A stretch of DNA of 63,066 bases, the filler included. It is 8 parts of 8 records of this genome, joined end to end, with 100 filler letters (N's around TTAATTAATTAA, not from the genome) between each part and the next. Parts side by side here need not be neighbours in the genome. Positions count along the whole stretch, not along the records: positions 25,604 to 34,109 come from SRR31156797_42031; 7 more parts are not named here. One strand, written 5' to 3'. Made by a program: the position numbers and the translations under genes. Below are positions 5,770 to 40,550 of the stretch, piece after piece. The notes beneath the pieces are model-generated. The model ran no database searches and was not told where the DNA came from. It saw only the letters and a program-made list of their open reading frames with translations. Position 1 is the stretch's first letter, and the number at the start of each line of letters is the position of its first letter.

Positions 5770-6022
5770 ACATCTCCTGCGTTTTAATCTTTGATGAATG
5801 AGGCTTCTTTGCCTTATTCTCTATTTTTTATTTCTGATTAGTTTTCAATAAAAATGATCGCTGTCTTGAAGAGACAATTCTTTCTTCATTTAAAAAGCAA
5901 AGCTTTTATCCTATAAATATAATTTTAAATTTATCTAATTTGATGTTGTTTATTCAATATGATGCAGAGTGTTTCTCGCAGGAACAGAAAACAACAAAAA
6001 ATTAAGCTAAAGTGGTGACCTC

Positions 6023-6814: not shown

Positions 6815-7000
6815 AAACTATTTTCCAGGCATTGGCTCTTCAGTAAAAAGTAGAAATTACGGCTCTGTAGAAATACCCATTTGAATGGCTCATGCAATCC
6901 TGACGTACCAGTCATGATTGCAGCCTATCAATTTTATGGAAAATATTGTGCTTTTTTATTATCGTTATGCAGAAAAAGAGTTGAAAGCAGCAGATTATTT

Positions 7001-7100
7001 NNNNNNNNNNNNNNNNNNNNNNNNNNNNNNNNNNNNNNNNNNNNTTAATTAATTAANNNNNNNNNNNNNNNNNNNNNNNNNNNNNNNNNNNNNNNNNNNN
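7001..7100. other. Artificial contig spacer
   Basis: N44-TTAATTAATTAA-N44, stops in all six frames; composition changes across it. Confidence 0.98.
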
Positions 7101-20768: not shown

Positions 20769-21929
20769 ATGAATCTTCAAACTGCCCTGCGCACCCTTAA
20801 ACTTAACAGCCAAGCAACCCGTGACGATGTCAAACAAGCCTATAGAAGACTTGCTGCACAGTGGCACCCAGATCTTCACGCTCAAAATCCCAAAATGGCT
20901 CCCAAGGCAGTTAAAAAGATGCAGGAACTTAACAGCGCCTACGCCATTGCCCTTGGCAGTTTAGGCTCACTGCCCTCTGGTACTGCAAAAAAAAACACAG
21001 CATCCCCCACAGTATCTTTCAATTCAAGATTTACTCTTTTCCTGCTCAGCGTGGTTGGTTTTCTCGCACTAGTCGCCCTGCTTTTTTTCCTTTATTACAG
21101 CCGCTCCACAGACAAAACCAGTATACCCAGCCCAAGTCGGGCTCATTCAACAATTAAAGGTCACCCCCGCCAGATATTCAAGTCCATTGATTTCCAACAC
21201 TTCAATCAGGATATCCTCAAAAATGCGCAACTCCACCTTGCGACCATCGGTTTCCCGACGGGAAAAATTGATGGCATTTTCGGCCCTCAATCCATTGCAG
21301 CCATAAATAGTTTTCATACCGCCTTTTCCTCACTCACCACCTTCGATACACCCGAAATTTTGCTGCGTATCTTGGCTGTGCATGCACAGATAGCAACTGC
21401 CCACCCGAATTGGCTGTCAATCGTGCAATCAGATGATTTCCATACTTGGCTTGCCAGGCCAAGCATCAGTGCCCAAAAACAGGAAAGGAGTTTGGGCACA
21501 GTACCGCAACTAACCCACCTGCTTAACAGCTATACCTTTGCAACCACTATGCCTGCAGCACAGCCACTCCCCCTGACAGAATCACTTTGGCAGAATGCGG
21601 CCTCACCTACTACCAAAACAATGACACTCGTTGGTAAAGCATCACCCAAGCAGCATAGTTTTATCAAACTGATATCCGCTGAATCCAAGCAAGAACTTAT
21701 GTATGCTTTTATACGCCAAGGTGACCAGTTAACTCTTCCCTGGCCAGAAAAAAAATGTCTCCTCAAAATGGCAACAGGCGAACAATGGTATGGTAAGCGT
21801 TTTCTGTTTGGCCCGAAAACAGAACACGGCAGTGCAGTGGTTGAACCTAGAAAAGGTAACAGCCACATCACCCTTCACCTCTCTACCCTTGCGACCGACA
21901 AGGCGATGACACCAGAAGATTCTTTTTAA
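20769..21929 (+). CDS. J-domain protein with TM, peptidoglycan-binding-like domain and uncharacterised C-terminal domain
   Basis: VKQAYRRLAAQWHPD..MQELNSAY; TM near aa 88-110; AQLHLATIGF..GKIDGIFGPQSIAAINSF; C-terminal ATGEQWYG..FGP. Confidence 0.82.
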   Translation: MNLQTALRTLKLNSQATRDDVKQAYRRLAAQWHPDLHAQNPKMAPKAVKKMQELNSAYAIALGSLGSLPSGTAKKNTASPTVSFNSRFTLFLLSVVGFLALVALLFFLYYSRSTDKTSIPSPSRAHSTIKGHPRQIFKSIDFQHFNQDILKNAQLHLATIGFPTGKIDGIFGPQSIAAINSFHTAFSSLTTFDTPEILLRILAVHAQIATAHPNWLSIVQSDDFHTWLARPSISAQKQERSLGTVPQLTHLLNSYTFATTMPAAQPLPLTESLWQNAASPTTKTMTLVGKASPKQHSFIKLISAESKQELMYAFIRQGDQLTLPWPEKKCLLKMATGEQWYGKRFLFGPKTEHGSAVVEPRKGNSHITLHLSTLATDKAMTPEDSF

Positions 21930-23755: not shown

Positions 23756-24206
23756 TACGATCCTCCTTTAATCAAAGAGTACGAAAGGCGCGCCTTTGTA
23801 GATCAAAGTTTGACCACGTCAACATTTTCACACGTACTTTATGTCCCCCCAATCTCCATCTCACGTTTCCCAAAAAAAGATAATCGATCTGCAGCAATAC
23901 AATTACCTCACCAAAAACACCACTGTTCACCATGCTTATAACAACATCATTTTAAGCTGCTCTGATTCATAAATCTTCCTCGCCCATCAGTCGAAGGGAT
24001 AATGAAAAAGAAAGTTCTGCAGTTATCAAGTATGGGTAACATTCGTGTTTTTACCGGCCCCACCTTGATTTCACAAAAGTGGCTCGGCTATAATTATTGA
24101 GATGGTTGGATACTAGCAAAAAAATGCAACAGAAATTTGACAAAATATTTTCAGGAACGCATGATACGACTTTGTGGTTCATTCACTCAATAATAAGGAG
24201 TCTAAA

Positions 24207-25503
24207 ATGCTTAATCGCTTTTCTGTAAAAGGCAGAATGTTTCTCATAGTAGGTGCAATATTATTCCTCTTTGCTGTCATGGTATTTTTCACCATGCAAC
24301 TCGGTAAAAAAATAGAGGATTTAGGGGTCAGCAAAACCGGTGAAATTATGCTGGCCGACCAAAAAGCGAAGCTCAAAGTGGCGGGGCACTCAATAGCACT
24401 CGCACTGGGAAATACTATTTCTAAAGCAGGCACCCTCGACGAAAAAATAGAAATAATTCGTCAAGATATCGATAACATCCGATTTGAAGATGATAAATCC
24501 GGTTACTACTTCGTATACAACAAGACAACAAATATCGCCCTCCCTCCCAAAAAAGAATTCCAGGGCAATGACTTGGGAGGATTAAAAGATAAAAATGGGG
24601 TGTATCTTGTCCGGGATCTGTATAAAAAAGCTTCGGCCGGTGGAGGGTTTGTTGAGTATATCTGGGCCAAACCGCAGGCTGGAGATGTGCCAAAATTAAG
24701 CTACGCTGAAATGATACCCGGAACAGACATGTGGGTTGGTACGGGTGTTTACCTGGACAACATAACCCAAAACCAGGCTGCAATGGCATCCGAGATTTCA
24801 AGTCGTGTCAAAAAAGAGCTTATTACTATGCTTATAATTTCAGGAGCAATTTTTCTTGGTATAATTACCCTCAGCATGGTAATCGCCCTCGGCCTTGTAA
24901 GTCGCCTCAAAATGATGGTCGTTAACTTCCAGGATATAGCAGAAGGTGAAGGCGATTTAACAAAACGTATAGATATCAAGTCAAACGATGAAATCGGTGA
25001 ACTGGCGGGGTGGTTCAATACTTTTATCGAAAAATTACAGGGCATTGTTAAACAGATCGCGGAGAACTCCACAAATGTAAGCTCCAGCTCCAACATGCTG
25101 ACAGGAATATCAAAAAATCTTTTAGAAAATTCTGGAGATACTTCACAGCGCGCAACAAACGTTGCCGCTTCCTCCGAAGAAATGAGTGCGAATTTAAGTA
25201 GTGTAGCTGCAGCCATGGAAGAGTCAGCGACCAATGCCAACATGGTTGCTGTTGCTGCAGAAGAGATGAGTTCCACAATTAATGAGATTGCTGAAAACGC
25301 AGAAAGAGCGCGAGGGGTTTCTCTTGATGCTGTTAATCAAGCGAAGGAAGCTTCTGTTTTTATGGACGAACTCGGTACAGCTGCCAATGAAATCGGTAAA
25401 ATGACCGAAACTATTACCGAAATATCTGAACAGACTAACCTGCTGGCGTTAAATGCAACCATTGAAGCTGCACGAGCAGGAGAGGCGGGCAAGGGTTTTG
25501 CTG
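24207..25503 (+). CDS. Methyl-accepting chemotaxis protein (Cache-HAMP-MA), 3'-truncated
   Basis: [28 protein letters not shown] Cache; [36 protein letters not shown]. Confidence 0.95.
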
Positions 25504-25603: not shown

Positions 25604-25885
25604 GTTCAGATTGTCCATGAATTGAGTCAGGTCCGCATTTAACTGGTTGGACACGGCTTTCAGTTCGGCCCGGGTGCTCTTTCGACGGTCCGAATTGGAA
25701 GATTCCAGGTCCGCCTTGAATTGACCCAGATCGCGCCTCAATTCTTGACCCATCTCGTTGCGGTCTTTTTCGAATTCACCCAACATCTCTTCGGTGTTCT
25801 CCCGCAGCTTTTCTACCCCTTGCACCCTCTCCTCATAGGCATTGGCAATCTCTTCCGCCAGTCTTCTCATTTGGTCTGCTAACAT
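25604..25885 (-). CDS. GvpC-like acidic amphipathic helical protein, 3'-truncated
   Basis: AAGGAGG SD; all-helical with periodic L..F (MLGEF, DLGQF, DLTQF); lies in the gvpA gene run. Confidence 0.55.
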
Positions 25886-26082
25886 TTTTGTCCTCCTTCA
25901 TGGATGATGGCAAAAGACATGCTTGAGATTATCGTTCAAAAAAAAGGGGCCAAATGCGCCTCAATCTCATCTTCAAGGACGTCCTGTTAGGTTGGCTTTT
26001 GCGAATCTGATCTTTGCGAATGCAGATTGGCGAATACTGGATATCGGTTTTTTAATATTGCTTTTGGGATGCCCCCGACTCA

Positions 26083-26715
26083 TTAATGGCCCGGGACCAC
26101 CGTTTGCCATTGGCTCCGGACCTTGTCTCGCACCATGGCCAGTTCTTCCAGCATCCGGCCGAACTGGTTGTCCCTGACGCCCTGTTGCGCCCTGAGAGAG
26201 TTGAGCATGACCTTGAAGTCCCTGACCCTTACGGATTCTCCCTTTTCCAGGAGTTTTTTAAGGGCGACCTTCAGTTCTTCCTGTTCAATCTGGATGCGTT
26301 TAAGAACCTGGATAATCCCTGTTTCCCGTTCCTTTTGTCGTTTCAGGATGTCTTCCCTGATGGCTTCCATATCCTCCAGCCTGGAACAGCCCCCTGAGGC
26401 GATGACTTTTCTGAGCCGGTCAACCATTCCCATCTCTTCTTCCTGGAAACGGTTGAAGACATTTTTCGCCTCCTTTTCCCGGGATAGCCGTCTTTCCGTG
26501 AGATCGGCCATCATGCGGTCAAAGTCCTTTTTCCTGAGGCTTTCCGTTCTGGCAAGGTTATCTCTCAAACGAATGATCATGTCTTCCAGTTCCGTTTGAA
26601 AGCTTCTGAGAAAATGATAGGACTGTTCCATCAACCCGTTTACGGTTTTTATTCGCATCTCATAGGAATCTATGATGCTGTAAGCCAGTGTTTTCAGGTC
26701 TTCTCCGGTTCCCAT
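26083..26715 (-). CDS. Gas-vesicle-cluster coiled-coil hypothetical protein
   Basis: GAGGTG SD; 210 aa charged helical protein directly downstream of gvpA; N-terminus resembles that of the next gene. Confidence 0.75.
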   Translation of the reverse strand: MGTGEDLKTLAYSIIDSYEMRIKTVNGLMEQSYHFLRSFQTELEDMIIRLRDNLARTESLRKKDFDRMMADLTERRLSREKEAKNVFNRFQEEEMGMVDRLRKVIASGGCSRLEDMEAIREDILKRQKERETGIIQVLKRIQIEQEELKVALKKLLEKGESVRVRDFKVMLNSLRAQQGVRDNQFGRMLEELAMVRDKVRSQWQTVVPGH

Positions 26716-26960
26716 CTTTCACCTCATTATAACAAAAAAACCGCAAATAACTCGGACAATTACGCGCAACTTCCATACATAGAAGGGAGCATTGTCAGAC
26801 TTATTTACGGTCTTCCAAAAATACAGCCGGAGATTTCAGATATGCTTAAGACTTCCGTGCCGAAATTCTTTTCCTGACGGGGAGGGGTTTAGAACGCCTC
26901 GCCGATCTCAAGGATACCTGGCAATCTCCCTTCAAGTTTTTTTAATCAGGGATAAAGGGT

Positions 26961-27164
26961 CTATGCGGTCGCGGTGAGTCCCACGGCCTCGGCATATTTC
27001 AGATAAGTTTCAACACCGGCGACCACGACCCTTGCTTCCACGGCCAGGAGTTCGATCCCCACCAGGGAAACCCTTGCCCATGCATCGACAACCACGCCCT
27101 TGTCCAGAATTCTGTCAACCACCTCGGCCAGACTTGAAGAAGCCATTGCTTTTTCCATTGCCAT
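26961..27164 (-). CDS. gvpA: Gas vesicle structural protein GvpA
   Basis: [56 protein letters not shown], the canonical GvpA sequence; AAAGGAG SD. Confidence 0.97.
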
Positions 27165-27234
27165 GATGAATCTCCTTTCTCATTCTAGGGTTTTAGATAT
27201 ACATAATTGTCCATTGTCCATGTCCATCATGACT

Positions 27235-27250
27235 TGCATTTGTCGTGCCA
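27235..27250 (-). promoter_or_regulatory. sigma54 (-24/-12) promoter for gvpA
   Basis: Minus strand TGGCACGACAAATGCA: GG-N10-GC with a TGGCAC -24 box, 70 bp upstream of the gvpA ATG. Confidence 0.78.
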
Positions 27251-27602
27251 TAATCGTTGCTGTTTTTATCTATTTGGATTTGATGATATAATTTGCCACC
27301 CGGTTTAATGTGCCAGCATTTGGGGCGTGGTAGGGTATGGCATTGCACCCCCAATTAGGGCATGGATGCCATAAGTGGGAGGCTGGTGCGATGAATCATA
27401 AGGAGAAATGATTTCAAAAAGAAACTTTTTTGTGTTGACTCAATTCCACTGTGTTCTTATAATGACCGTTGAATTTTCCGAAATCATATAACCCTCTATT
27501 TTTGTTCCTTATCACCTGGTCTTCTGTCAAAAAAAACAAGAAGTTCGTTGGCTAAAAAACCTAAAATCTAAAATTTAAATCAGACGAAATCCTTCCGGGC
27601 CT

Positions 27603-28523
27603 TTGGACACGTCGGTTTCTCAAATGGACAGTTTGCCTCAATTCAAAGACGGTCTGGCGGATATTCGAAAAGACCGGGCCGGTCTTCGGAATCTGGTGGC
27701 GTATATCCATCATGAGCGCGGGATTGATTTCAGCGGTTATATGGAATCCACCCTCGCCCGCAGGATCGCGGTTCGGGTCAATGCCCGGGGGGCGAAAAGC
27801 TTTGCCGGATATGAGAAGGTCCTGGAAAAAGATCCGGCGGAGTATTCGCGGCTCCTGGACCATCTTACCATCAATGTGAGCCGGTTTTTCAGGAACAGGG
27901 GTGCCCTGGAAACCCTGGTGCGGGTGTTGCTTTCCCTTCGCAAAACCGATCCGCATCGGCCCATCAGCATCTGGAGCGCCGGATGTGCCACGGGTCAGGA
28001 GCCTTTTTCCATCGCCATGCTTCTGGATAGGCAACTGGGGGATTCGGCGCGGGAGGGCGTCAGCATACTGGCCACGGACATTGATGGGGAAGCCCTGAAA
28101 TCTGCCCGGAAAGGGGTGTTCGGCAAAGAACAGGTTCAGGATGTGCCGTCGCAAATGCTGGAACAGTATTTTGACGGGGGAAAAAGCGGCTATCAAGTCA
28201 AAGAGCGCTTGAGGCAATGGGTTGATTTTCAGCACCATAACCTTTTATATGACAAACCGCCCGGGGCCGTGGACGTGGTGGCGTGCCGCAATGTATTGAT
28301 CTATTTTCGAATACCCGTTCAGGTACAGGTGGTTTGGAATTTCCATGGGGCCCTGAAAGCGGGGGGGGTTTTGCTCCTGGGGCGATATGAGATGCTGGGT
28401 CGGGAAACGCGGCATGGATTCAGGGCCGTGGATTTCGACGCAAGGTTGTATGAGAAGCAGGCTGTGAACGGAGGACGGAAGTGGGCGACCAATGGCCAAA
28501 CTATACCCATTACCCTATATTAA
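27603..28523 (+). CDS. cheR: CheR-type protein-glutamate O-methyltransferase
   Basis: GIDFSGY..TLARRI, LTINVSRFFRN, IWSAGCATGQEPFSIAM, ILATDID, CRNVLIYF; exact start uncertain. Confidence 0.93.
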   Translation: MDTSVSQMDSLPQFKDGLADIRKDRAGLRNLVAYIHHERGIDFSGYMESTLARRIAVRVNARGAKSFAGYEKVLEKDPAEYSRLLDHLTINVSRFFRNRGALETLVRVLLSLRKTDPHRPISIWSAGCATGQEPFSIAMLLDRQLGDSAREGVSILATDIDGEALKSARKGVFGKEQVQDVPSQMLEQYFDGGKSGYQVKERLRQWVDFQHHNLLYDKPPGAVDVVACRNVLIYFRIPVQVQVVWNFHGALKAGGVLLLGRYEMLGRETRHGFRAVDFDARLYEKQAVNGGRKWATNGQTIPITLY

Positions 28524-29142
28524 ATTCAAGTCATTGCGCGGGAAGACCCTGCATAAAACCCGCAACCTCCACCGCCTTCCCCCCGAAAAGGTGGTGGTCA
28601 TGGGCGCTTCCGCCGGTGGCCTTGACGCCCTGTGTACCGTTATGAGAACCCTGCCGGATGGATTGCCCCTGACCGTTCTGGTTTTGCAGCACCTGAGGGA
28701 GGGGCATAACACCCACCTGGCCGATATCCTCGGCCGCAGTACCCGTCTGGCGGTACGTGAGGCGGAACCGGGGGTGCTTCTGGAAAAGGGCGTCGTATAT
28801 GTGGCCGTTCCCGGAAAACACCTGCTGGTCCGGGACCGACGGATTGTTCTGGGAAACGGACTTCCGGTGCGGCATGTGAAGCCTTCCGTGGACGTGCTCT
28901 TTAAATCGGTCGCCGCCATTTGGGGACCCGCCGTCATGGGGATTATCCTTTCGGGTACGGGGAGCGACGGCGCCGCCGGATGCCGGGCCGTAAAGGCGGC
29001 GGGCGGCGTGATCATGGCCCAGGACCCGGGCGAAGCCGCCTTTTCCGGCATGCCCGAGGCCGCCGTGAAGACCGGCTGCGTGGATCATGTGCTGCCCGCG
29101 GGGGAGATCGGGGAGAAGATTGCGGCGTTGACAGTCCAATAA
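28492..29142 (+). CDS. cheB: CheB-type methylesterase without a receiver domain
   Basis: GASAGG (Ser), LQH (His), KPSVDVLF, LSGTGSDGA (Asp), GMPEAA; no N-terminal REC. Confidence 0.92.
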   Translation: MAKLYPLPYIKFKSLRGKTLHKTRNLHRLPPEKVVVMGASAGGLDALCTVMRTLPDGLPLTVLVLQHLREGHNTHLADILGRSTRLAVREAEPGVLLEKGVVYVAVPGKHLLVRDRRIVLGNGLPVRHVKPSVDVLFKSVAAIWGPAVMGIILSGTGSDGAAGCRAVKAAGGVIMAQDPGEAAFSGMPEAAVKTGCVDHVLPAGEIGEKIAALTVQ

Positions 29143-29163
29143 CCAACCAAGGAGGCATCCATC

Positions 29164-30225
29164 ATGGCCAAACCCAAAACACCCATGCAGATCCGAGCGG
29201 CCAGGCACCTGGCCCTGCTTCGGAAGACCACCACCAATGTGACCCAGAGCAAGTTGCCGCCGCGCACCTCCAAACATTTGAAGTTGTCCCATGGGGTGCC
29301 GGGCGGGCGGTATATCACGAGGCTGGACAAAGGGGAGTGGGAGGAGCGCGTGGACCAAATCCTCCGTAACCTGGAGGAGAACCGCTACAGCCGAAGCAAC
29401 GCCCTTTATTTCGCCCTTTCCAACGTGAAAACGCTGCTGAATGAGATGGAGAAGAAAAAGGCCGATTTGGAGACCTACATGGAGGAACTCCAGGCCTCCA
29501 ACGAAGAGATGAGGGCCAGCAACGAAGAGATGCGCATCCTTCAAAACGAGGCGGAGCGAACCCATGAGGACACGGAAAGTATCCTTGCGGCGGCGCCCGT
29601 GCTTTTTGAAACACCTTTGAAGCGTATTAAAGGGGATGCCAGCGCCCTGGCGGAAGCCTGTGGGGATCGGTTGGACCCGGAAGAACTTGAACGGCTTTTC
29701 GCCATGGCGGAAGAAGCCGCCCTGATGGAAAAGAGGCTCGGCGGATTAACGGACTACTGGCGCATGGATGTGGAAGGGGGCGCTTTCGAGACAGTGGATT
29801 GTGAAGGCATCATGGGCCGGGTGGAAGAAGACCTGGAGGAGTTGATCAACACCGCCGGCGCCGAAATCACCCATGACCCCCTTCCGGCGGTGAAAGGGGA
29901 TGGGGATCAGATGACCCTTCTTTTCACGATTCTGCTGAATCGGGCCCTCTCTCTGCCCGGGGGCCATCCTCTCCGCATTCACGTGGCGGCGAGCCCCGTT
30001 GAGGCGGAAGATACGCCTGAGGTGGAAAAGGGGTGGGCCTTCCGGGTGGAGGACAACGGCGCCGACATTCCGGAAGAAGACCGGGAACGGATGTTCAAAG
30101 TGAACCCGACGGGGACCATGGATCCGGCCGTTGCCTGGCGCATCGTGAGCCGGCACGGCGGAGGCATGACGGTTGCGCCCAAAGCGGGCGGGGGGAATGT
30201 GTTTGAATTTTCCCTTCCTGCCTAG
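29164..30225 (+). CDS. Degenerate histidine kinase (pseudokinase) with unknown N-terminal domain and methyl-accepting coiled coil
   Basis: Aligns along its length with the next gene but has Val at the H-box His, Arg at the N-box Asn, DNGAD at G1 and no G2; carries EELQASNEEMRASNEEM. Confidence 0.8.
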   Translation: MAKPKTPMQIRAARHLALLRKTTTNVTQSKLPPRTSKHLKLSHGVPGGRYITRLDKGEWEERVDQILRNLEENRYSRSNALYFALSNVKTLLNEMEKKKADLETYMEELQASNEEMRASNEEMRILQNEAERTHEDTESILAAAPVLFETPLKRIKGDASALAEACGDRLDPEELERLFAMAEEAALMEKRLGGLTDYWRMDVEGGAFETVDCEGIMGRVEEDLEELINTAGAEITHDPLPAVKGDGDQMTLLFTILLNRALSLPGGHPLRIHVAASPVEAEDTPEVEKGWAFRVEDNGADIPEEDRERMFKVNPTGTMDPAVAWRIVSRHGGGMTVAPKAGGGNVFEFSLPA

Positions 30226-30240
30226 GTTGGCCATTGACCC

Positions 30241-31476
30241 ATGACCAATATGGTTAAGCTGTTTCAAAAACAGACGGGTAGAAGACCCTGGGACCGTCGA
30301 GGGCGGACGGAAGATTCAACCCCAATCGTGGAACCGGTTGTGGAGGCCGGTGCTCCTTTTTCCATGGGAGGGACGGCATGCAGATCCCCGGGAGAACCGA
30401 AAAAGCCCCGGGAGATCCGACGGCACACGGATCTGGAAATCCTGGAACGGACCACCACCAGTGTAACCCACAAGCGGTTGCCCCCGCGCACGGGAAAGAA
30501 TCTCAAACACTGCCATTTCCTGAAGGGGGGACGGGAGATAGCCCGCCTGGGCAAACACCCCTGGGAGGAACGGGTGGCCGGGAATCTGCGAACCCTTGAG
30601 GCGAACCGTTTTGCCCGGCACAACGCCATTTACCATGCCCTGGCCCATATCTCGGGACTGCTGGGCGAAGCCGAAACCCGGGAATCGGTGCTGCACGCCA
30701 CCTCCGAGGAGTTGAAGCGTACGAGCGAGGTACGGGAGCGGTATGCCCGTGAACTGGCCCGGGCCAATGAGGATCTTGAGCAGTTTGCGTCGGTGGCATC
30801 CCATGACCTGCAGGAGCCCCTGAAAAAGGTGATCCGGCATGCGCGACGCATTTTGAAGTCATCCGGCGCCGACCTGGATCCCGAAACCGAAAAAGACCTG
30901 GAGACGGTCATGGATGAGACCGTCCACATGCAGGCACTTATCAAGGCGGTTCTGGCCTATGCCCGGGTGGAGACCGTAGGGGAAATCGAGGAAACGGCAG
31001 ACTGCGATTCAATCCTGGACCAGGCCTTGAGCAACCTGTCGGCTTCCCTGGAGGAATCTTCGGCAAGAATTGTTCGGGATCCCCTGCCGACCCTGAAGGG
31101 GGATTTCGAACAGTTGATCCGCCTGTTTCAGAACCTGGTGGGGAACGCACTGAAATATTATGACCCGGAAAAGGCGGACCCCTTTGTCCACGTCTCCGCG
31201 AAACGGATGGAGGAGGCATCCGTCCCCATGCCCGATTCCGCCGGAAATGCCGGGTGGCTGTTCCGGGTAAAAGACAATGGGGTCGGTATTGACGAGGATT
31301 TCCAGGATGATATATTCAATATGTTCATACGTCTCTACACCCGGGATGAAATCCCCGGCGAAGGCATGGGGCTCGCCATCTGCAAGCGGATCGTAAAACG
31401 GCACCGGGGCGAAATCTGGGTGGAATCGGAATACGGAGTGGGGTCGAGGTTTTATTTTACCATTCCGGACCAGTGA
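30241..31476 (+). CDS. Cytoplasmic histidine kinase with the same unknown N-terminal domain
   Basis: ASHDLQEPL, FQNLVGNALKY, DNGVGI, GEGMGLAICKRIV; no TM. Confidence 0.92.
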   Translation: MTNMVKLFQKQTGRRPWDRRGRTEDSTPIVEPVVEAGAPFSMGGTACRSPGEPKKPREIRRHTDLEILERTTTSVTHKRLPPRTGKNLKHCHFLKGGREIARLGKHPWEERVAGNLRTLEANRFARHNAIYHALAHISGLLGEAETRESVLHATSEELKRTSEVRERYARELARANEDLEQFASVASHDLQEPLKKVIRHARRILKSSGADLDPETEKDLETVMDETVHMQALIKAVLAYARVETVGEIEETADCDSILDQALSNLSASLEESSARIVRDPLPTLKGDFEQLIRLFQNLVGNALKYYDPEKADPFVHVSAKRMEEASVPMPDSAGNAGWLFRVKDNGVGIDEDFQDDIFNMFIRLYTRDEIPGEGMGLAICKRIVKRHRGEIWVESEYGVGSRFYFTIPDQ

Positions 31477-31501
31477 CCAGCAACCCAAAAAGGGGAGATC
31501 C

Positions 31502-32716
31502 ATGACCCAAAAAGAGATCAGACTTCTCCTTGTGGAAGACAACCCCAAGGATGCCCGCGACCTGGAGAAAATGCTCGGCTGCTGCAAGAGGGGACCCTAT
31601 GCCGTTGAACTCGCCGACCGTCTGGCGACGGCCTACCGTAAACTGGCCGGCGGTTCCTTTGATCTGCTGCTTCTGGATCTTTTTCTGCCCGAGAGCAAGG
31701 GGCTCGGCACCCTTAAAAAGGTGAAGGCCAAGTCCCCCGGAACGCCCATTGTGGCCCTCACCCGCTTTGACGATGAACAAACCGGGATGAATGCGGTGCG
31801 CGAAGGGGCCCAGGACTATTTGGTCAAGGGCCAGTTCGACGGTAATCTGCTGGAGCGATCCATTTATCATGCCATCGAGCGGCACCGGGGGGAAGAGGCC
31901 CTTCGATTGAAAAATATCGAACTGGAGGTGCTCAACCAAAAACTCATGGAGGCGGACCGCCTTAAATCGGTGTTTGTGGCCAACATGAGCCATGAACTGC
32001 GTACCCCCCTTAATTCCGTCATCGGCTTTACCAGCATTATCCTCAAAGGGATGTCGGGCCCCGTGACCCCGGACCAGAAAAAGCAGTTGGCCATGGTGAA
32101 GAAAAACGGCCAACATCTGCTTCAGCTCATTAATGATGTGTTGGATGTATCCAAAATCGAGGCGGGAAAGATCGAGCTTTCCTTTGACCGATTCCTGCTC
32201 TCGGAGCTGTTAACCGAAACCCTTGCCGGCTTCAGGCCCGAGCTGGATCGGAAGAACCTGACCCTGACCACAAACCTTGACATCGATCCGGAAATGATTT
32301 CGGACCGGATCCGCCTCAAGCAGATTCTCCTGAACCTGACCAACAACGCGGTCAAGTTCACGGACCGGGGTGGCATAACCATTGCCGCGTGTCATTTGAA
32401 GAATCAAAACGGCGGGACCGATTCTTTACCAATGCCCAATAACCGATCCCCCATGACCCATAAGCATTTGGTTCAAATTTCCGTGGCGGATACGGGGATC
32501 GGAATACGGGAGGAGGACATGGATAAACTTTTCATCCCCTTTCATCAACTGGACATGTCCATGACAAAGACCCACCAGGGAACCGGCCTGGGACTCCATC
32601 TTTCCCAAAAAATGGCCCATCTCCTGGGGGGACACATTACGGCCCGGAGCCTGCATGGAAAGGGGAGCCGCTTTACCCTGACCCTTCCCGTGAAACATGA
32701 GGAGGGCAGCCCATGA
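31502..32716 (+). CDS. REC-HisKA-HATPase hybrid kinase
   Basis: LLVEDN..LLDL..GAQDYLVK receiver; MSHELRTPL; NNAVKFT; DTGIGI; GTGLGL. Confidence 0.93.
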   Translation: MTQKEIRLLLVEDNPKDARDLEKMLGCCKRGPYAVELADRLATAYRKLAGGSFDLLLLDLFLPESKGLGTLKKVKAKSPGTPIVALTRFDDEQTGMNAVREGAQDYLVKGQFDGNLLERSIYHAIERHRGEEALRLKNIELEVLNQKLMEADRLKSVFVANMSHELRTPLNSVIGFTSIILKGMSGPVTPDQKKQLAMVKKNGQHLLQLINDVLDVSKIEAGKIELSFDRFLLSELLTETLAGFRPELDRKNLTLTTNLDIDPEMISDRIRLKQILLNLTNNAVKFTDRGGITIAACHLKNQNGGTDSLPMPNNRSPMTHKHLVQISVADTGIGIREEDMDKLFIPFHQLDMSMTKTHQGTGLGLHLSQKMAHLLGGHITARSLHGKGSRFTLTLPVKHEEGSP

Positions 32717-33084
32717 AAAAGATTCTGATGGTGGAAGACAATGAATCCAACCGCTATCTGATGCGCTATATCCTTGAGAAGAGCGGTTTCCAGGTGATGG
32801 CGGCCATGGACGGGGCCTCGGGGATTGAGCGGGCCCGAAAGGAGAGGCCGGACCTGATTCTCATGGATATTCAACTCCCCGGAATGGACGGCCATGCGGC
32901 AACGCGCATCCTCCGGGAAGATCCGGCCTGTGGACGGATCCCCATTATTGCGGTCACCTCCTATGCCATGCCGGCGGACCGGGATCGGGCCCTGGCGGCC
33001 GGCTGCAACGGATACATTGAAAAACCCATCGACACGGACCGGTTTGTGGCTCAAATCAAAAAAATCCTCCCCGATGACCCGTAG
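32713..33084 (+). CDS. Single-domain response regulator (DivK/CheY-like)
   Basis: VEDN, PDLILMDIQLPGMDG, AVTS, GCNGYIEKP. Confidence 0.94.
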   Translation: MKKILMVEDNESNRYLMRYILEKSGFQVMAAMDGASGIERARKERPDLILMDIQLPGMDGHAATRILREDPACGRIPIIAVTSYAMPADRDRALAAGCNGYIEKPIDTDRFVAQIKKILPDDP

Positions 33085-33095
33085 GAGATTATCTC

Positions 33096-34109
33096 GTGAT
33101 GAACGATTCCCCCACCTTTGAAGAAACGGCCCCCCGGATCCTGGCCGTTGAAGACCGGGCCGAAGACCGTTACCTTCTGGAAACCATGCTGAAGGGGGGC
33201 GGCTACCGGGTAACCTCCTCCCGGAACGGTTGGGATGCCTACCACAGGCTGCTGGGGGAGGGACCTTTTGATTTGATGGTCTCCGACATCCTCATGCCCG
33301 AGATGGACGGCTATCAACTCTGCGCCAAGGTTAAAACCCATGAGCGGTTCAAGGAAATTCCTTTCATCTTTCTGACCGCCACCTATATGAGCCATTCCGA
33401 CGAGACATTCGCCATGAACCTGGGCGCGGACCGGTTTTTTAGAAAACCCGTGGACATGGATGATTTGCTGGCAGCGGTGGCGGATCTGCTCAGACAAACG
33501 GCCGAAGGGAAGTACGCCCCCAAAGCGTCCCTGAATGAGGCGGTTTTCTCCGATGCCCATGTCAAACATGTGCTCCAAGGCCTGGAAAGAAAATCCGGTG
33601 AGTTGGAATCCCTCCTTCGGAAACAGAAGGGTACCGAGGAGGCCCTGCGGAAAAGCGAAGCGCGTTACCGCCTCGTCTCTTCCCTGGCCAGCGATTATTT
33701 TTATCAGCTGAGCCTTACGGATAAGGGCGGCTGGGTCATTGACTGGATCGGCGGCGCCTTTGAGGAGATGACCGGTTACGGGAAGGACGAGATCAAGGAT
33801 CTGGATGACTGGGTGGGCATTGTGGCGCCCGAAGATATGGATGAGGTGAAGGGGAAGTTCCCTCCGCTCCCGAAAGGACAAAACACCCGGATTGAGTACC
33901 GGATCATCACCAAGAGCGGGGAGGTGCGTTGGCTGACGGATTACAACAGGCCTTTTATGGATGATGAACAGCGCGTTACCGGGATCATCGGCGCGGTCAA
34001 GGATATTACCCACGAAAAAATATTGGAGCGACAGCTTCGCCAAAGCCAGAAGCTGGAGGCCATGGGGACTCTGGCGGGGGGCATTGCCCATGATTTCAAC
34101 AATATCCTC
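33096..34109 (+). CDS. REC-PAS-HisKA hybrid kinase, 3'-truncated
   Basis: SDILMPEMDG receiver; PAS/PAC (EYRIITKSGEVRWL..DIT); QKLEAMGTLAGGIAHDFNNIL. Confidence 0.9.
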
Positions 34110-34209: not shown

Positions 34210-35716
34210 CTATCAGCTAACTGGTTTGATTGACACTGACGGCCGGTTGCTCGCCGCGAACCGGACTGCCTTACATTTTGCCGGCGCCGAGGAATCGGAG
34301 GTTATTGGGCAGTACTTCTGGAATGGTCCATGGTGGGGCCCGTCACAGAAATCCGAATTGCAGAACGCGGTTGAACGCGCTGTGAAAGGCGAATTCGTCC
34401 GGTTCGAAACTACGCATCCAAGTGCAGAAGGGCAGATCAGGGACATCGACTTCTCACTGAGCCCGGTTCGGGACGACGATGGTAACGTGATTTATGTCGT
34501 GCCGGAAGGACGCGATATTACGGAGGTAAAGCGAGCGGAGCAAGAGAAGGCAAAGCTTCAAGAGCAACTCAACCAGGCTCAGAAGATGGAAGCCCTGGGA
34601 ACTCTGGCCGGCGGTATTGCACACGACTTTAATAATATTCTTGCCGCAATTTTCGGCTATGCAGAGCTTGCAAAGATGCTATTACCAACTTCGAACAAAG
34701 CTTCAGGTTATATAGGCGAAATTCTTAAGGCAGGAAACCGCGCCAAGGAGTTGGTTCAACAAATTCTTACTTTCAGCCGCCAGACTGAGCATGAATTAAA
34801 ACCGGTATCGGTGAAAATAGTTACGAAAGAGGCTCTCAAGCTCATCCGGGCAACTTTACCGTCAACTATCGAAATCAGGCAAAACATCGTTTGTGATTCC
34901 CTTGTCTTGGGCGACCCAACACAACTTCACCAAATTATAATGAATCTTTGCACCAACGCCGGTCACGCCATGAGTGAAGATGGAGGCGTACTTGAGGTTG
35001 AACTCAAATCAGTAACGCCTGATTCCATGTTTACCGCGAACTATCCGGAACTGAAACCAGGGGAATACGTGAATTTGACCGTAACCGATACCGGTCATGG
35101 AATGACCGCAGATATCTTAAACCGGATATTTGACCCTTTTTTCACCACCAAGGAAAAAGGCGAAGGAACTGGTATGGGGCTGGCTGTAATCCATGGTATC
35201 GTCACAAGCTATGGGGGCATGATACAGGCCTACAGTGAGCCAGGGAAAGCGTCCAGTTTCAAGGTTTTCCTGCCAGCGATTGAAGGCCGCCATGAATTGG
35301 AAAAAGAACACGAGGCTGTGCTGCCACAAGGTAACGAGCGAATTCTTTTTGTGGATGATGAGCCTGCCATAATCGATATAAGCAAACAAATACTCGAGTA
35401 TCTTGGGTATCATGTTACCGTGCAATCAAGCAGCCTGGATGCTCTGGAATTGTTTAAGACTCAACCGGACGCATTTGATCTGGTTATTACTGACTTGACC
35501 ATGCCAAAGATGGCTGGGGATAGGCTCGCCATGGAGTTGATGTCCATCCGACTGGACATTCCGATCATAATTTGCACTGGATTCAGCAACCGAATCGCTG
35601 AGGAAACCGCTAGGAAGATGGGCATAAAAGGATTGCTTATGAAGCCGATCATCAGCTCAGAATTGGCCAGAAAGGTGCGAGCTGTTTTGGATTTACATAA
35701 AGGCTACCAGCTATAG
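34210..35716 (+). CDS. PAS-HisKA-HATPase-REC hybrid kinase (CckA-like architecture), 5'-truncated
   Basis: AHDFNNIL, NLCTNAGHAM, DTGHGM, FFTTK..GTGMGL, VDDE..TDLTMP..KP; the last codons overlap IS21-derived DNA. Confidence 0.93.
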
Positions 35717-36759
35717 GAGCGTGGCTTCGATCTTGAAAAACGGCTTGGATAAAAGACCGGCCATGGAAAAGGAAGGCGACAGCCCGCCCCTCAGACACAC
35801 CAATATCAGGGGGGCCGAATATTACTCGTCACAGAAAGGAGAAGAAAATGCTGACCCATCCGACAATGGACAAACTAAAAGCCATGAAGCTTTGGGGCAT
35901 GCCAAGGCTTTGGAGGAGCAGACAGCCTCTTCAGAGGCCAGCTCCCTCTCATTTGAAGAACGCCTCGGGCTGATGGTGGACCGGGAGATGGACGAGAGGC
36001 AAAACCGCCGCATGGCCGCCAGACTCAGAAAGGCGAAATTGCGTTTGCCTGCCTGCATGGAGGATATTGATTACCGCCACAAAAGGGGTCTGGACAAGGC
36101 CCTGATGCTGTCCCTGGCTTCCTGCTCCTTTGTCCGAAAAGGACAAAATGTCATCATCACCGGATCAACGGGCGTGGGTAAAACATACCTGGCCGTGGCC
36201 CGGGGAGACGGCCGCTATCCCAAAGTCATGGCCGCCTACGCCAAAGCCGACCTGCTGGTCCTGGACGATTGGGGGCTTGACCGCATAAGCAGAGGGGAGC
36301 GCCTCGATCTGCTGGAATTGCTTGAAGACCGATACGGCTTGAAATCAACTCTTGTCGCCGCCCAGGTAACCATCGATCAATGGCACGAGATCATAGGCGA
36401 CCCGACTCTGGCCGACGCCATCTTGGATCGGCTGGTCCACAACGCTTACAAAATCCAACTCAAGGGAGAATCAATGCGAAAAAAATACGGCGGACTGACA
36501 TGAAACAGGAAGAAGATTTTCTACCGAATCCCAATACGAGGCTTGGAGTCCTCTCTGACCGCTTTGCGGCTTTATATAAAAAACAAGAAAAAAGAAGAGG
36601 CAAAAGCTGCATCGCCTTACCGACCCAACTTGATTTGGAAGCGCATTTGTATATATGATTACTAAAACAGCGTCGCTCCGCTCCGAAGAGTGGCCGGAAT
36701 GACCGGATCAGCCGGCCGGATTAAATCGGAACCACTGGCCACATTCAACGGAATACGCA
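35702..36759 (+). mobile_element. Decayed IS21-family element (istA C-terminal stub, broken istB, intact right end)
   Basis: SYRSVASILKNGLD..HTNIRGAEYY is an IstA C-terminus; right end has three ~22-bp GGCC..CGGA repeats (36690-36759) ending GGAATACGCA. Confidence 0.88.
35848..36503 (+). pseudogene. istB: istB helper ATPase pseudogene
   Basis: True start MLTHPTMDKLKAMKLWGM is out of frame with AKALEEQ..LSFEERLGL; Walker A GSTGVGKTYLA is joined directly to VARGDG (apparent internal deletion); LVLDDWG, LADAILDRLVH, GESMRK. Confidence 0.88.
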
Positions 36760-37918: not shown

Positions 37919-38911
37919 TCAAAAATCATGCCCAGGGATCCGATGTGTGTGGAGATTCCCACCTTTGATTCGATATAGGGTCACGGTATATCCCGATATT
38001 TTGGAGCCAGACCTCTTGAATTTAAAAACATTGTCAGCTTTGCTATATACCGTGTCCGGCCCGAAATAATGCTCATAACCATACCAAACCTCTCCAGAGG
38101 CATATTTCATGACATAAGAGCCCAATGGCACCTTGATTTCGGTGGTCTCTCCGCCATGTATGAAAATAGTCAGGACAGGTTCTTTTGATATCAGGTCTTC
38201 CAGTTTTACAAGGAAGTGGCTGCCGGGTCTTGTATGTATTTGGAGAGGAGCAATAGGCTCTGCTGCTGTAAAGCGCCGAATCTCGAAATTTGGCGGCAAT
38301 GGCAGAGGGGGCTCCGTAAAGGCTGGTTTAACGGGCGCCCTGGAATCACGAGCTGAATTAACACCTATCCCGGCAGTCGATCTATCTGCTTCGGAGAAAC
38401 TTGACTTATTCTTCGATTCTGATGCTGGCTGAGACCCAATCCAAGCCGCAATACAAAAAATAACGAGGATGCTAAAAATTACATAAAAGACTGTTGCAAC
38501 CGGATCCCCTGATTTTTCAACTCGTGGTGAAGGTTTCGAAAAAGATTGCGGTTGTGGACGATGAGTTTGTCTTTGATGAGGATGTGTTGATTTCTCTAAT
38601 GATGGTTTTGGGGGCCTCAGTTTGCTCATTAGGGCTTCATACCTTGAAAAAGGTTTTACCTGGACCGTAAAATCTTCCGCCGCGGGACCGGTCCAATTTT
38701 CAGTATGCGTTAAACCGAGCCTTGAGCGAAGTCGGCCGACTGTAAAAACCGCCCTGTGAGTAATATCGTATATTTCTTTCTTAGCCGGGTCAGTCAATAC
38801 CGTTTCTATATCTGTGTTTATCTGTCGGTGATTAACAAGGTTAAGGGCCTCTTTTATCACATGAATAGGAGCATAAGGCTTTAATCCAAGCCTCTTGTAC
38901 AGATCACGCAT
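37919..38911 (-). CDS. Membrane protein with degenerate J-like N-terminus (no HPD) and uncharacterised C-terminal domain
   Basis: DLYKRLGL..IKEA..VLTDPAKKEIYD; Pro/Ser linker; TM; KYASGEVWYG..FGPDT. Confidence 0.78.
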   Translation of the reverse strand: MRDLYKRLGLKPYAPIHVIKEALNLVNHRQINTDIETVLTDPAKKEIYDITHRAVFTVGRLRSRLGLTHTENWTGPAAEDFTVQVKPFSRYEALMSKLRPPKPSLEKSTHPHQRQTHRPQPQSFSKPSPRVEKSGDPVATVFYVIFSILVIFCIAAWIGSQPASESKNKSSFSEADRSTAGIGVNSARDSRAPVKPAFTEPPLPLPPNFEIRRFTAAEPIAPLQIHTRPGSHFLVKLEDLISKEPVLTIFIHGGETTEIKVPLGSYVMKYASGEVWYGYEHYFGPDTVYSKADNVFKFKRSGSKISGYTVTLYRIKGGNLHTHRIPGHDF

Positions 38912-39638
38912 GATTCACCAGGTATGTATAGGCTTCTTCGATTCTTTGAAAGGTTACAGTGGCAGCCGCAAAAGCTTCGTCTCCCAGGGAAAGAAAGCGG
39001 TCAGGGTGATGTATCTTGGCCATCCGTCTGTACGCTTTTTTAACATCATCTATATTGGCCTCTTCAGCCAAGCCTAGAATTGCAAGCGCCCGCAGCCTTT
39101 TAAAAAAAGATTCATCTTTTCTTTTTGAATGTTCCTGTTTCTCTTCCGAACCACGTTTTTTATTTTCTTTCTCCTCGTGTTTCCGCCACCATCGAGAACT
39201 ACTAATGTCGGGGATTTCAACAATGGGTTTGGACGTGAGATTAATAAAAGCCTGGTTAAGTTGGTCACGTTTCATACCCATCAAGTCGGCAAGGTATCTG
39301 ATTATGTAGTTCTCGGAATAGGTAAGGTAATTATCCGCAATGGCTACACCTATGGCCATGTCCATAAAAAGGGAAGCTTTCTCGCCTTTGAAGGACTTCT
39401 GAACAATCTCTGAGGCCAATTGTAATGAGTCAAGATCACCCTCTATCGCCAAACGAATCAAAGGTTCCATATCGTGTTGATGATTGCTCGACGAAGAGAT
39501 TTCACGCAGCCTTTTCGTCTCCCGTTCATCAATATTTCCGTCTGATGCCGCAATCCAGGAAAGGATCAGTAATACTGATGCGCCTAATTGGTTTTTGCTT
39601 TTCAACAGTAACTTTTCGAATTCTGTAAACTCGAACAT
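38904..39638 (-). CDS. TerB-domain plus C-terminal J-domain protein (DjlA-like, no N-terminal TM)
   Basis: IAASDGNIDERE and VAIADNYLTYSE TerB motifs; ALAILGL..VKKAYRRMAKIHHPD..FQRIEEAY; start probably ATG 39638 (ORF open to 39731). Confidence 0.85.
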   Translation of the reverse strand: MFEFTEFEKLLLKSKNQLGASVLLILSWIAASDGNIDERETKRLREISSSSNHQHDMEPLIRLAIEGDLDSLQLASEIVQKSFKGEKASLFMDMAIGVAIADNYLTYSENYIIRYLADLMGMKRDQLNQAFINLTSKPIVEIPDISSSRWWRKHEEKENKKRGSEEKQEHSKRKDESFFKRLRALAILGLAEEANIDDVKKAYRRMAKIHHPDRFLSLGDEAFAAATVTFQRIEEAYTYLVNHA

Positions 39639-40550
39639 AGGCCCCCTGCGCTGTTGGAGATTTGAAAAAGCAATAGTGTAATGTTTAACTTTTGATTTAA
39701 GCCCCGTATGGGAGGCGATTTTCAGCTTCAATAATCTTAAAGAATGATGTGATCATTTTTACCGAGTGCACCGAGTTATCACTAGTCAGAACAGATTCAA
39801 TTGATTGCATGGTTATTCTTATCGTGTAATCATATACTGCGAGTTACGTTCTTTGCCCCGAAAGAACATGTTAAAGACCCAGTTTGCCATCCTGACAGTG
39901 GGTCCCCCTGACTCCACATTATTAGAAAATAGCATGCATGCCATGCCATAATCAAGCTGTTTTACAGCACCAAACCTGACCCACTCCTTATTAGCCGGGA
40001 GAATCCTGCCCGGTTAATCCTTCTTATTTCTTGAGGTTTTGTAGGTTCAAAAATAAAACTACACCCCCTGCTCTTGACTCATTTCGACTTTTTTCCACCG
40101 ATAGGCGTTTTAGGCCTGCTTTTAGGGCCTCCCCGGCCCCGGCCATTTTTATATTCGACTGGGAGACGGCGGAGTTTTATAATTTGCCTCCCCCAAATCC
40201 TGCATTTGCTTTTCATGAAGCTTGATATACAGGGAAAGAAATTCTTCCGAGATCGGCTTCCGCCGGTCAACGCATTCCAGGAAATGCTGCCCGGCTTCAG
40301 ACAACCAGAGTGAACGAAGCTCGATTATCTTTATGTTCATGGGCCCCCTCCACTTTTGCTTTTGCAGACGTCTGCAAAAATATAAAAACAGGTTGTCGCC
40401 GGGGCAGTAAGGGATTTAGCGGCGCCCTCTCTAAAACCCTGGCAATCCTCCGGTTGATATCCAGCCCACTATTTTGGATTATTATTAAGTTTAAAAGCAG
40501 AATTCGGTTCGCGCAACATCAATTTATAGTGGTTCTCAAAAGTATTTTCC

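Follow-up and report, generated by a model that had tools for sequence, protein, structure and literature searches.

A MAC2-like methylation module encoded beside gas-vesicle genes in two distant lineages

Gas-vesicle (gvp) genes and a chemotaxis-like adaptation module lie head to head on a single contig, which we analysed as part of a 63-kb window (the whole stretch of DNA under study, consisting of eight contigs joined with N44-ttaattaattaa-N44 spacers). Positions 25604-34109 of the window are exactly one whole contig of 8,506 bp from a draft assembly, with both ends cut. One strand carries gvpA followed by two coiled-coil genes, coil210 and a third that is truncated; the other carries cheR and cheB, then psK, which encodes a kinase-like protein without a phospho-acceptor histidine, MACK, which encodes a kinase with an intact HisKA domain, and three further genes for receiver (REC) proteins (Table 1). 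The two sides are separated by 438 bp (27165-27602), close to the ~440 bp reported in an earlier note that was made on this DNA from the sequence alone, and the che-side genes lie close together, 11 to 25 nt apart or overlapping. Pfam and NCBIfam matches together with the translations bear out the gene calls of that note, including the pseudokinase and the CheB without a REC domain, and its statement that these proteins have no transmembrane segment agrees with a maximum 19-residue Kyte-Doolittle mean of 1.1 over all kinases. Because the corresponding Logan contig, built by an independent assembler from the only run holding this DNA and probably its source, is identical over 8,503 bp and its depth is flat at 38.9 across the gvpA-cheR junction, we see no sign that the contig is a chimera. 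GC content at third codon positions is 0.59-0.63 for the gvp side and cheR and 0.68-0.73 for the remaining che-side genes; this difference shows no clear break, and horizontal transfer of the che part is not favoured. An Rfam search of the contig gave no match. A search of sequencing runs found the contig in one run only, and listed no RNA run with it.

Table 1 Genes and candidate promoter elements of the contig, in window coordinates
Feature	Position	Strand	Basis
Third gvp-operon gene, coiled coil, 94 aa kept, 3′ end cut by contig end	25604-25885	-	Open reading frame (ORF), translation
coil210, 210 aa, directly after gvpA	26083-26715	-	ORF; no Pfam/NCBIfam family
gvpA, major gas-vesicle structural protein, 67 aa	26961-27164	-	PF00741 E 1.1e-15; NF006874 E 4.4e-37, 126 bits (cut-off 100)
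Sigma-54-like -24/-12 element TGGCACGACAAATGCA	27235-27250	-	70 nt upstream of gvpA ATG; 1 mismatch
Sigma-70-like promoter TTGACT-17-TATAAT, upstream of cheR	27435-27463	+	11/12 consensus positions
cheR, protein-glutamate methyltransferase, MAC lineage	27603-28523	+	CheR_N E 2.6e-11, CheR E 1.5e-54
cheB, methylesterase domain only	28492-29142	+	CheB_methylest residues 35-210 of 216, E 4.5e-58; no Response_reg match
psK: N-domain, putative methyl-accepting coiled coil, His-less DHp-like segment, degenerate ATP-binding domain	29164-30225	+	Weak HATPase_c, no HisKA match
MACK: N-domain, short coiled coil, intact HisKA (SHDLQEPL), HATPase_c	30241-31476	+	HisKA E 2.4e-8, HATPase_c E 9.6e-24
REC-HisKA-HATPase_c kinase	31502-32716	+	Pfam
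Single-domain response regulator, 123 aa, CheY/DivK-like, no output domain	32713-33084	+	Response_reg E 1.7e-29
REC-PAS-kinase, cut in H-box (..GGIAHDFNNIL) by contig end	33096-34109	+	Response_reg, PAS_3, translation

The adaptation enzymes have the character of a methyl-accepting coiled-coil (MAC) system. The genes cheR, whose start is either a TTG at 27603 or an ATG at 27624, cheB and psK are consecutive and separate, and their order is the same in L081 and L082, two metagenomic loci described below. CheB aligns with solved structures of the CheB catalytic domain (1chd, 1a2o and 3sft; E 1e-28 to 1e-30), and its translation contains the motifs GASAGG, QH and GTGSDG, which we take to be catalytic; because it has no REC domain, it would not be able to take phosphoryl feedback. 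A scan of GTDB genomes with the window CheR yielded 80 loci, all at 45% identity or less. The two best by E-value are L001 and L003 (45%), which encode, respectively, a 1,435-aa CheB-CheR-PAS-coil-PAS-histidine kinase-REC protein of the MAC1 type and a 658-aa CheR-coil fusion; the coils of both contain runs of ..NEELxxxNEEL.. heptads, as in the psK family, and neither has gvp context. The remaining 78 loci are without such a heptad run and look like ordinary che operons. In a quick maximum-likelihood tree of CheR (83 rows, none dropped, long branches), the window protein joins those of L081 and L082 with a Shimodaira-Hasegawa-like approximate likelihood ratio test (SH-aLRT) value of 91, and these three, together with L001, L003 and the long-branched L025, are split from 77 classical CheRs (SH-aLRT 95). 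L025 (contig C245 of the Bacteroidales genome G005) is a stand-alone MAC-clade CheR encoded between REC-kinase and REC genes; the same genome holds the gas-vesicle locus L113 on another contig. Within cheB, the segment LHRLPPEKVVVMGASAGGLDALCTVMRTLP (28567-28656, CheB residues 26-55) gave many weak per-repeat matches to TAL effectors in a PDB sequence search, whose summed E-values fall below those of real CheB structures while no single stretch passes alone; this similarity is probably an artefact of repeat summing.

The protein encoded directly after CheB is kinase-like and carries receptor-like methylation motifs. psK and MACK are paralogues (35% identity over 366 aa) and have in common an N-terminal region of ~95 residues for which there is no Pfam or NCBIfam model. 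This N-domain aligns with 11 proteins of ~480 aa with the order N-domain-PAS-HisKA-HATPase_c, the named ones among them from Desulfobacterales or 'Proteobacteria' metagenome-assembled genomes (MAGs), and has the consensus KTPRDAKG..LKILEKTTxSVxQSRI.P.S..NLKHCH.L..SR.I.RIDRxPWEERV...NAL..AL. A profile search against 5.8 billion proteins recovered 27 carriers, made up of 19 N-domain-PAS-kinases, 6 short proteins with HATPase_c only and 2 multi-PAS proteins; the domain occurs in none of 401 sampled Bacteroidota genomes and in none of 5 other genomes. In an AlphaFold2 (AF2) model, whose mean predicted local distance difference test (pLDDT) of 69 is too low to support a fold search, a first helix is joined by a disordered loop containing the KHCH motif to a long helix, which enters the coiled coil, and an Atlas look-up of N-domain plus coil returned only unnamed clusters at 0.90 or below. 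By its conservation across these carriers the region qualifies as a real, rare and new domain. The true start of MACK is probably ~40-55 codons downstream of the annotated one, as the N-termini of N-domain-PAS-kinases begin ~15 residues before the domain.

Behind the N-domain, the psK coil reads EELQASN-EEMRASN-EEMRILQ, with a spacing of seven residues. Chemoreceptors are methylated at the consensus Glx-Glx-x-x-Ala-Ser/Thr, and the EExxA[S/T]N heptads of psK fit it. A scan of 1.84 billion representatives, together with the N-domain profile search, supplied relatives of psK; these carry 2-5 heptads EExxA[AST]N each, and E107, E108, Q110, A111, N113, E121 and E122 are invariant in 11 psK-family sequences. 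The kinase half of the protein has diverged: when psK is aligned with the solved kinase 8f71_A by HMMER, the phospho-histidine is replaced by Val and the N-box Asn by Arg, and the G2 box is lost. Across a MAFFT family alignment, the phospho-acceptor His is present in 0 of 12 psK-type proteins versus all 4 short N-domain kinases (MACK, P0247, P0252 and P0255); the N-box Asn, G1 and G2 are kept in 10 of the 12, being lost in the window psK and its closest relative P0245 (62% identity). An alternative phospho-His 11 residues before the canonical site (THED in psK, MHSD in L081 and L082) was rejected, as P0244, P0248, P0391, P0392 and P0394 have none. The family is therefore kinase-like and not phosphorylatable at the usual site, and most members look capable of binding ATP. 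A psK-type protein and an N-domain-PAS-kinase also occur on equally sized contigs in two other assemblies (P0391 and P0387, 8,091 bp; P0394 and P0007, 27,461 bp), which suggests that the pairing is conserved, equal size and source implying and not proving that each pair shares one contig. A predicted psK-MACK heterodimer scored 0.18 (mark 0.34) and was counted for neither side.

These traits bring the module close to MAC2, a class that is said to go back to Wuichet and Zhulin in 2010. In the literature cited here, a MAC protein is defined as a methyl-accepting coiled-coil protein that is receptor and kinase in one, with CheB and CheR fused to it in MAC1 and encoded beside it in MAC2 (10.1101/2022.05.07.491037; PMC6943060); to the knowledge of the preprint's authors, such systems are experimentally uncharacterised in any respect (10.1101/2022.05.07.491037). 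Like MAC2, the window has separate cheR and cheB genes beside a soluble kinase-type protein whose coiled coil bears receptor-like, putatively methylated sites. The 8.5 kb of the cut contig hold no methyl-accepting chemotaxis protein (MCP), CheA or CheW, and in the quick tree its CheR has MAC-type affinity. Unlike MAC2, the window does not unite receptor and kinase in one protein: the putative methyl-accepting protein is His-less family-wide and paired with a second kinase, and the locus adds the N-domain and the gvp linkage. The comparison, in which class is set by traits and tree, supports a MAC2-like module with one departure, namely that the methyl-accepting protein is not itself a kinase; we call it a variant of MAC2 because kinase function lies in a separate paralogue, MACK, or in the REC-kinase, and not in the heptad protein. 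MAC1 proteins (L001 and L114) have the same ..NEELxxxNEEL.. heptads and a related CheR domain, and L114 also heads a gvp operon; they differ in carrying enzymes and methyl-accepting coil on one polypeptide without an N-domain, and the kinase-bearing MAC1 protein L001 keeps its His. The MAC2 reading put forward in the earlier note thus holds, given the separate cheR and cheB beside a methylation-type heptad protein and a CheR that groups with two MAC1 CheRs away from the classical ones, and that such a module acts on the psK-type protein is, on these sequence traits, highly likely. The same note's description of a new system goes too far, MAC2 being an already described class; new here are the unnamed N-domain of psK and MACK, the His-less heptad-bearing psK family, and the gvp genes immediately upstream of the module at both of the further loci found through the N-domain.

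The classical chemotaxis system, in which an MCP is modified by CheR and a CheB with a REC domain, uses the same enzyme families, and the acceptor motif in psK fits its consensus at heptad spacing; it differs in that the window cluster has no transmembrane receptor, CheA or CheW and its acceptor would be a kinase-like protein. The contig is only 8.5 kb long and cut at both ends, and the assembly encodes classical chemoreceptors, because the end of the preceding contig of the window (24174-25503) holds a truncated MCP gene (sCache_2-HAMP-MCPsignal, the first 71 of 172 MCPsignal positions). CheR and CheB might thus be spare adaptation enzymes for classical chemoreceptors, with MCP, CheA and CheW beyond the contig ends and the adjoining kinases unrelated two-component genes. 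We regard this as improbable: CheB has no receiver domain, CheR clusters with MAC-type CheRs and not with the 77 from che operons, the gene directly after cheB has invariant methylation-type heptads, and the module of L082 ends with REC and is followed by AAA_21 and HNH genes, not by MCP, CheA or CheW. None of these three was found on the 8.5-kb contig, L081 or L082. The label 'receptor-less' given in the earlier note, and its finding of no MCP, CheA or CheW, therefore stand for this contig only and do not extend to the assembly, whose preceding contig holds the MCP fragment.

Linkage of the module to gas-vesicle genes recurs in a second, distant lineage of sulfate reducers. A search of the JGI metagenome collection with the N-domain profile yielded L081 and L082 and no other locus; as both stem from a single metagenome, with 80-90% identity between them, they count as one lineage. 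Compared with the window, the identity of their proteins is 33-44% and the GC content of their DNA 35% against 55%; among named proteins, KPA16531.1 of Candidatus Magnetomorum sp. HK-1 is closest to their psK-type protein (63% identity). L081 encodes on one strand a GET3/ArsA-type ATPase (cut), a GvpM/J-like protein of 64 aa, GvpK and a GvpJ/A-like protein of 117 aa and then, after 40 bp, CheR, a CheB without REC and a psK-type protein at the locus end. L082 likewise has, on one strand, the 117-aa Gvp gene, cheR, cheB, the psK-type gene, a REC-kinase gene and a REC gene, followed by unrelated AAA_21 and HNH genes. The psK orthologues of L081 and L082 are 34% and 33% identical to psK over the full length, the REC-kinase of L082 is 34% identical to that of the window over its full length and follows the psK-type gene in the same way, and the L082 REC-only gene, the last of its module, occupies the position of the window's single REC gene (33% identity). 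The shared core of cheR, cheB, a His-less MAC protein, REC-kinase and REC is thus linked to gvp genes in both lineages with known context, and the arrangement differs between them, being divergent from gvpA in the window and placed after the last gvp genes with ~40-bp gaps in L081 and L082. The earlier note had only adjacency to go by for the regulatory link; to this are now added a distant lineage in which the module directly follows gvp genes and one MAC1-like case in Bacteroidota (below). In L081 the gap between cheB and the psK-type gene (3638-4249) is ~530 bp longer than in L082 and contains two long palindromic inserts resembling miniature inverted-repeat transposable elements (GC 0.415 vs ~0.35). 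In L082 the module is followed (5547-7375) by a gene for an AAA_21/AAA_15 ATPase that overlaps one for an HNH endonuclease; the pair looks defence-like and has a lower GC (0.27-0.29).

The gas-vesicle side of the contig represents the start of a conserved operon type. GvpA is 84% identical to the GvpA proteins of L113 (contig C23 of G005, Bacteroidales) and L114 (contig C10 of G255, Bacteroidota). It is encoded by the sole named gvp gene on the contig, with no additional small gvp ORFs there and gvp accessory genes absent from the contig and the rest of the window, because the contig end cuts the operon after the third gene. The full operons of L113 and G255 begin with the same order of gvpA, coil210-type gene and coiled-coil gene. 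L113 has the full operon type, reading cut kinase, REC-Sigma54_activat-HTH_8 activator, gvpA, a 202-aa homologue of coil210, a 409-aa coiled coil, a zinc-finger protein, gvpN, a 103-aa gene, gvpJ, hsp20, arsA-like, cdc48-like and gvpF/L. coil210 is 29% identical (E 4e-14) to the 202-aa protein, and the third gene is 44% identical over 32 aa (E 6e-6) to the third-position 409-aa coiled-coil gene and has a weak match to the GvpC repeat TIGR02641 (E 0.0022, 18.1 bits, below the cut-off of 18.8). Our background sample of 401 Bacteroidota genomes includes 39 with PF00741; in 33 of these the 202-aa protein has exactly one match, in all 33 within the gvp cluster. When the places were compared by hand, 31 of the 33 matches immediately followed a gvpA-type match, and the other 2 stood at the start of a contig, 2.6 kb from the next PF00741 match. 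The two coiled-coil genes of the window are therefore conserved members of the gvp operon, with coil210 in the position that gvpC takes elsewhere. The coil210 family comprises 320 clusters at 60-90% identity, mostly from unnamed metagenomes, the named ones being Desulfobacteraceae or Deltaproteobacteria MAGs. An AF2 model of coil210 shows four long helices (pLDDT 81); a fold search with it against the PDB gave no match at E <= 0.001, and an Atlas look-up gave a weak lead to GvpC (0.86). Searches for further loci found none with coil210 or profile A3 on viral contigs and no match among plasmids.

That the two genes after gvpA encode conserved, glutamate-rich coiled coils, and that cheR directly follows gvp structural genes in L081 and L082, raises the possibility that CheR and CheB modify gas-vesicle proteins such as these coiled coils, tuning vesicle strength or clustering after translation, with the kinases regulating the two enzymes. 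We hold this to be very improbable, as a run of EExxA[S/T] heptads occurs in neither coiled-coil protein and is invariant in the psK family, and the same heptads occur in CheB/CheR-fused MAC1 proteins without gvp context. The operon type whose start the window contig has in common with L113 and L116 (contig C18 of G255) further includes genes for a DnaJ-type zinc finger, HSP20, a GET3/ArsA-like ATPase, a CDC48-like double AAA ATPase and a GvpF/L-DnaJ fusion. DnaJ-domain proteins are also encoded elsewhere in the window, on two further contigs (20769-21929 and 38904-39731), with no apparent connection.

The promoter region of gvpA points to a candidate route of control. The element TGGCACGACAAATGCA, a consensus match, is the only match with at most one mismatch to the sigma-54 pattern in the 63-kb window, and in L113 and L114 the single such match precedes gvpA by 77 and 73 nt, respectively. 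For the sigma-70-like promoter, also a consensus match only, the divergent region has 6 matches versus 4.4 +/- 2.5 in shuffles, which is not above background. In Serratia sp. ATCC 39006, according to the part of the published account cited here, gvpA1 has a sigma-54 promoter and depends on the NtrC-like GvrA (PMC4982088). The window resembles that system in having regulatory genes (GvrA, GvrB and GvrC in Serratia) beside a gvp operon and a sigma-54-type promoter before gvpA; it differs in that its contig is without an NtrC-type activator, and in that this part of the account names the Serratia regulators without methylation enzymes (PMC4982088). Because the sigma-54-like promoter sits at a conserved position, the window gvpA very probably needs an NtrC-type activator, that is, an enhancer-binding response regulator, encoded off the contig. 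Pfam found no Sigma54_activat domain on the contig, and a tblastn search with the L113 activator gave only REC similarity in the window. In the simplest output path, a kinase would signal to an NtrC-type activator, which would act on gvpA; alternatively, the REC-only protein may act at the protein level. Control of gas-vesicle synthesis with memory, as the earlier note had it, was therefore overstated: the contig has no DNA-binding output, the activator for gvpA was not found, and such control is still an inference.

Downstream of MACK the module continues with three REC proteins. The single REC gene overlaps the preceding REC-kinase gene by 4 nt and its product has a weak match to the DVU0259/DivK family (NCBIfam); the best NCBIfam similarity of the REC-PAS-kinase is to CckA, below the cut-off. 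All receiver domains have, in translation, the usual acidic-pocket, Asp, Thr and Lys positions. We propose that CheR methylates, and the REC-less CheB demethylates, glutamate pairs in the EExxA[S/T]N heptads of psK, which would serve as a methylation-tuned sensory or regulatory subunit that senses through the N-domain it has in common with MACK. Because it has no phospho-acceptor His, psK would not itself be phosphorylated and would instead set the activity of the true kinase or kinases, MACK in the window and the REC-kinase in the L081/L082 lineage, from where phosphoryl groups may pass among MACK, REC-kinase, single REC protein and REC-PAS-kinase. The output on gas vesicles would most likely be through an off-contig activator of the GvrA/NtrC type, with the sigma-54-like gvpA promoter as its target; direct action of the single-domain REC protein on vesicle assembly is less likely. 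Taken as a whole, a cytoplasmic MAC2-type signalling module that is genetically coupled to the gvp cluster and works in this way is the account towards which we lean, by a modest degree.

Several observations weigh against this account. GvpA was found by tblastn at 0 of the 80 loci around related CheRs, so that MAC systems in general are not gvp-linked. Genomic context is on record for two N-domain lineages only, both Desulfobacterales-like, and the linkage could therefore be one inherited arrangement; 25 of the 27 N-domain proteins of the profile search are without known neighbours. In the Bacteroidota control, 23 of the 39 genomes with PF00741 also have CheR (21 above the family cut-off), and in 22 of these 23 CheR and gvp lie apart, on other contigs or more than 100 kb away. 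The MACK coiled coil has at most one poor methylation-like site, and CheR and CheB could have other substrates because the genome has at least one classical MCP. Window-wide, one sigma-54-like match was found against 2.1 expected, which is not above chance, and it is the position of the element, not its count, that carries weight. Finally, no DNA-binding regulator, sigma-54 activator or HPt domain is encoded on the contig or elsewhere in the window.

The remaining Bacteroidota genome, G255, has a 995-aa CheB-CheR-coil-PAS_10-PAS gene, kinase-less, 163 bp upstream of two tandem gvpA genes at a contig end. Over its final 55 nt this contig is 100% identical to the end of a second contig with the rest of the gvp operon (gvpA, coil genes, gvpN, gvpJ, hsp20, arsA-like, cdc48-like and three gvpF/L genes), although the tandem gvpA copies allow other joins. 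As a rough estimate from ~35 CheR genes, a gvp target of ~25 kb and a 2.8-Mb genome, ~0.3 such CheR-gvp cases are expected by chance, and we treat the location of this gene at the gvp operon as suggestive and not significant. In L114 (7701-11653, the operon probably continuing in L116) the 995-aa gene lies directly upstream of the gvpA copies and a sigma-54-like motif; the related genome G251 has an ABC-F gene in its place.

These counts bear directly on whether the adjacency is coincidental or merely inherited, the module being a general-purpose MAC2 unit whose output lies elsewhere (in stress, redox or development, for instance) and the gas vesicles being under a separate kinase and NtrC-type activator as in L113. 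The absence of GvpA from all related-CheR loci, the separation of gvp and CheR in nearly all the Bacteroidota genomes that have both, the self-sufficient kinase and activator pair at the L113 gvpA, and a relay on the contig without DNA-binding output all fit such a state of affairs. It is harder to reconcile with a linkage that is kept in two lineages whose orthologues are only 33-44% identical, that survives rearrangement from a divergent to a tail-to-head layout with ~40-bp gaps, and that has a third, independent counterpart in the MAC-type gene heading a gvp operon in another phylum. On balance we consider coincidence or inheritance unlikely, if far from negligible, and judge from gene order that the module is probably tied to gas vesicles in function. 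That this tie is transcriptional, through a sigma-54 activator, is a tentative suggestion, which we rate as somewhat less likely than not.

Although there is no sequence orthology, the proposed division of roles works like a known cell-cycle circuit. In Caulobacter, DivL, a kinase-like protein without the phospho-His, is reportedly the regulatory partner of the true kinase CckA, in a circuit with the single-domain response regulator DivK. The window too has a His-less kinase-like protein, a REC-only protein and a REC-PAS-kinase with below-cut-off similarity to CckA; DivL differs from psK in that a Tyr replaces the His and methylation sites are absent, and it acts on the cell cycle, not on buoyancy. 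A His-less methyl-accepting protein together with a true kinase suggests a division of labour in which adaptation would reside on one subunit and catalysis on the other, and we know of no description of such a split for bacterial histidine kinases. MAC systems are widespread, and repeated gvp linkage would offer them a first testable output, flotation and gvpA expression being easily scored; for gas vesicles, which also serve as acoustic reporters, the module would, if the proposal is true, add a signalling input beyond the known quorum-sensing, oxygen and light controls. More speculatively, and in our view doubtfully, there may be a lineage of MAC-type modules dedicated to buoyancy, in which gas vesicles, and not flagella, are the means by which a chemotaxis-like pathway with methylation memory steers vertical position, the His-less methyl-accepting pseudokinase acts as a soluble receptor that senses by a new N-domain with conserved His and Cys and gates a partner kinase, and the gvp link has arisen at least twice (Desulfobacterales MAC2 and Bacteroidota MAC1). 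A full-text search, with subscription journals and supplements outside its scope, found no publication that links gas vesicles with CheR, CheB or MAC proteins.

Three other contigs of the window were considered as continuations of the locus, and none fits. The preceding contig, with the truncated MCP, was rejected as the upstream continuation as its reading frame does not run into 25604, and the contig starting at 34210 was rejected as the continuation of 34109 as it starts inside a different PAS-kinase-REC gene. A kinase fragment that lies at an end of a further contig (46770-47507) differs in its H-box and was likewise rejected as the missing 3′ part of the REC-PAS-kinase. The last 33 bp of our contig (34077-34109), which encode the H-box GGIAHDFNNIL, have a depth of 450 versus 38.9 elsewhere and are shared with many contig ends of the run; the assembly breaks at 34109 because this conserved kinase motif is a repeat. 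The following contig starts within a PAS-HisKA-HATPase_c-REC hybrid kinase gene (34226-36503, including the next gene), and the IS21-type IstB ATPase gene directly after it (35721-36503) suggests that an insertion sequence lies at the kinase gene or close to it. Farther along the window, on the minus strand, an ORF of 1,799 aa (40717-46116) lies downstream of a cut kinase gene.

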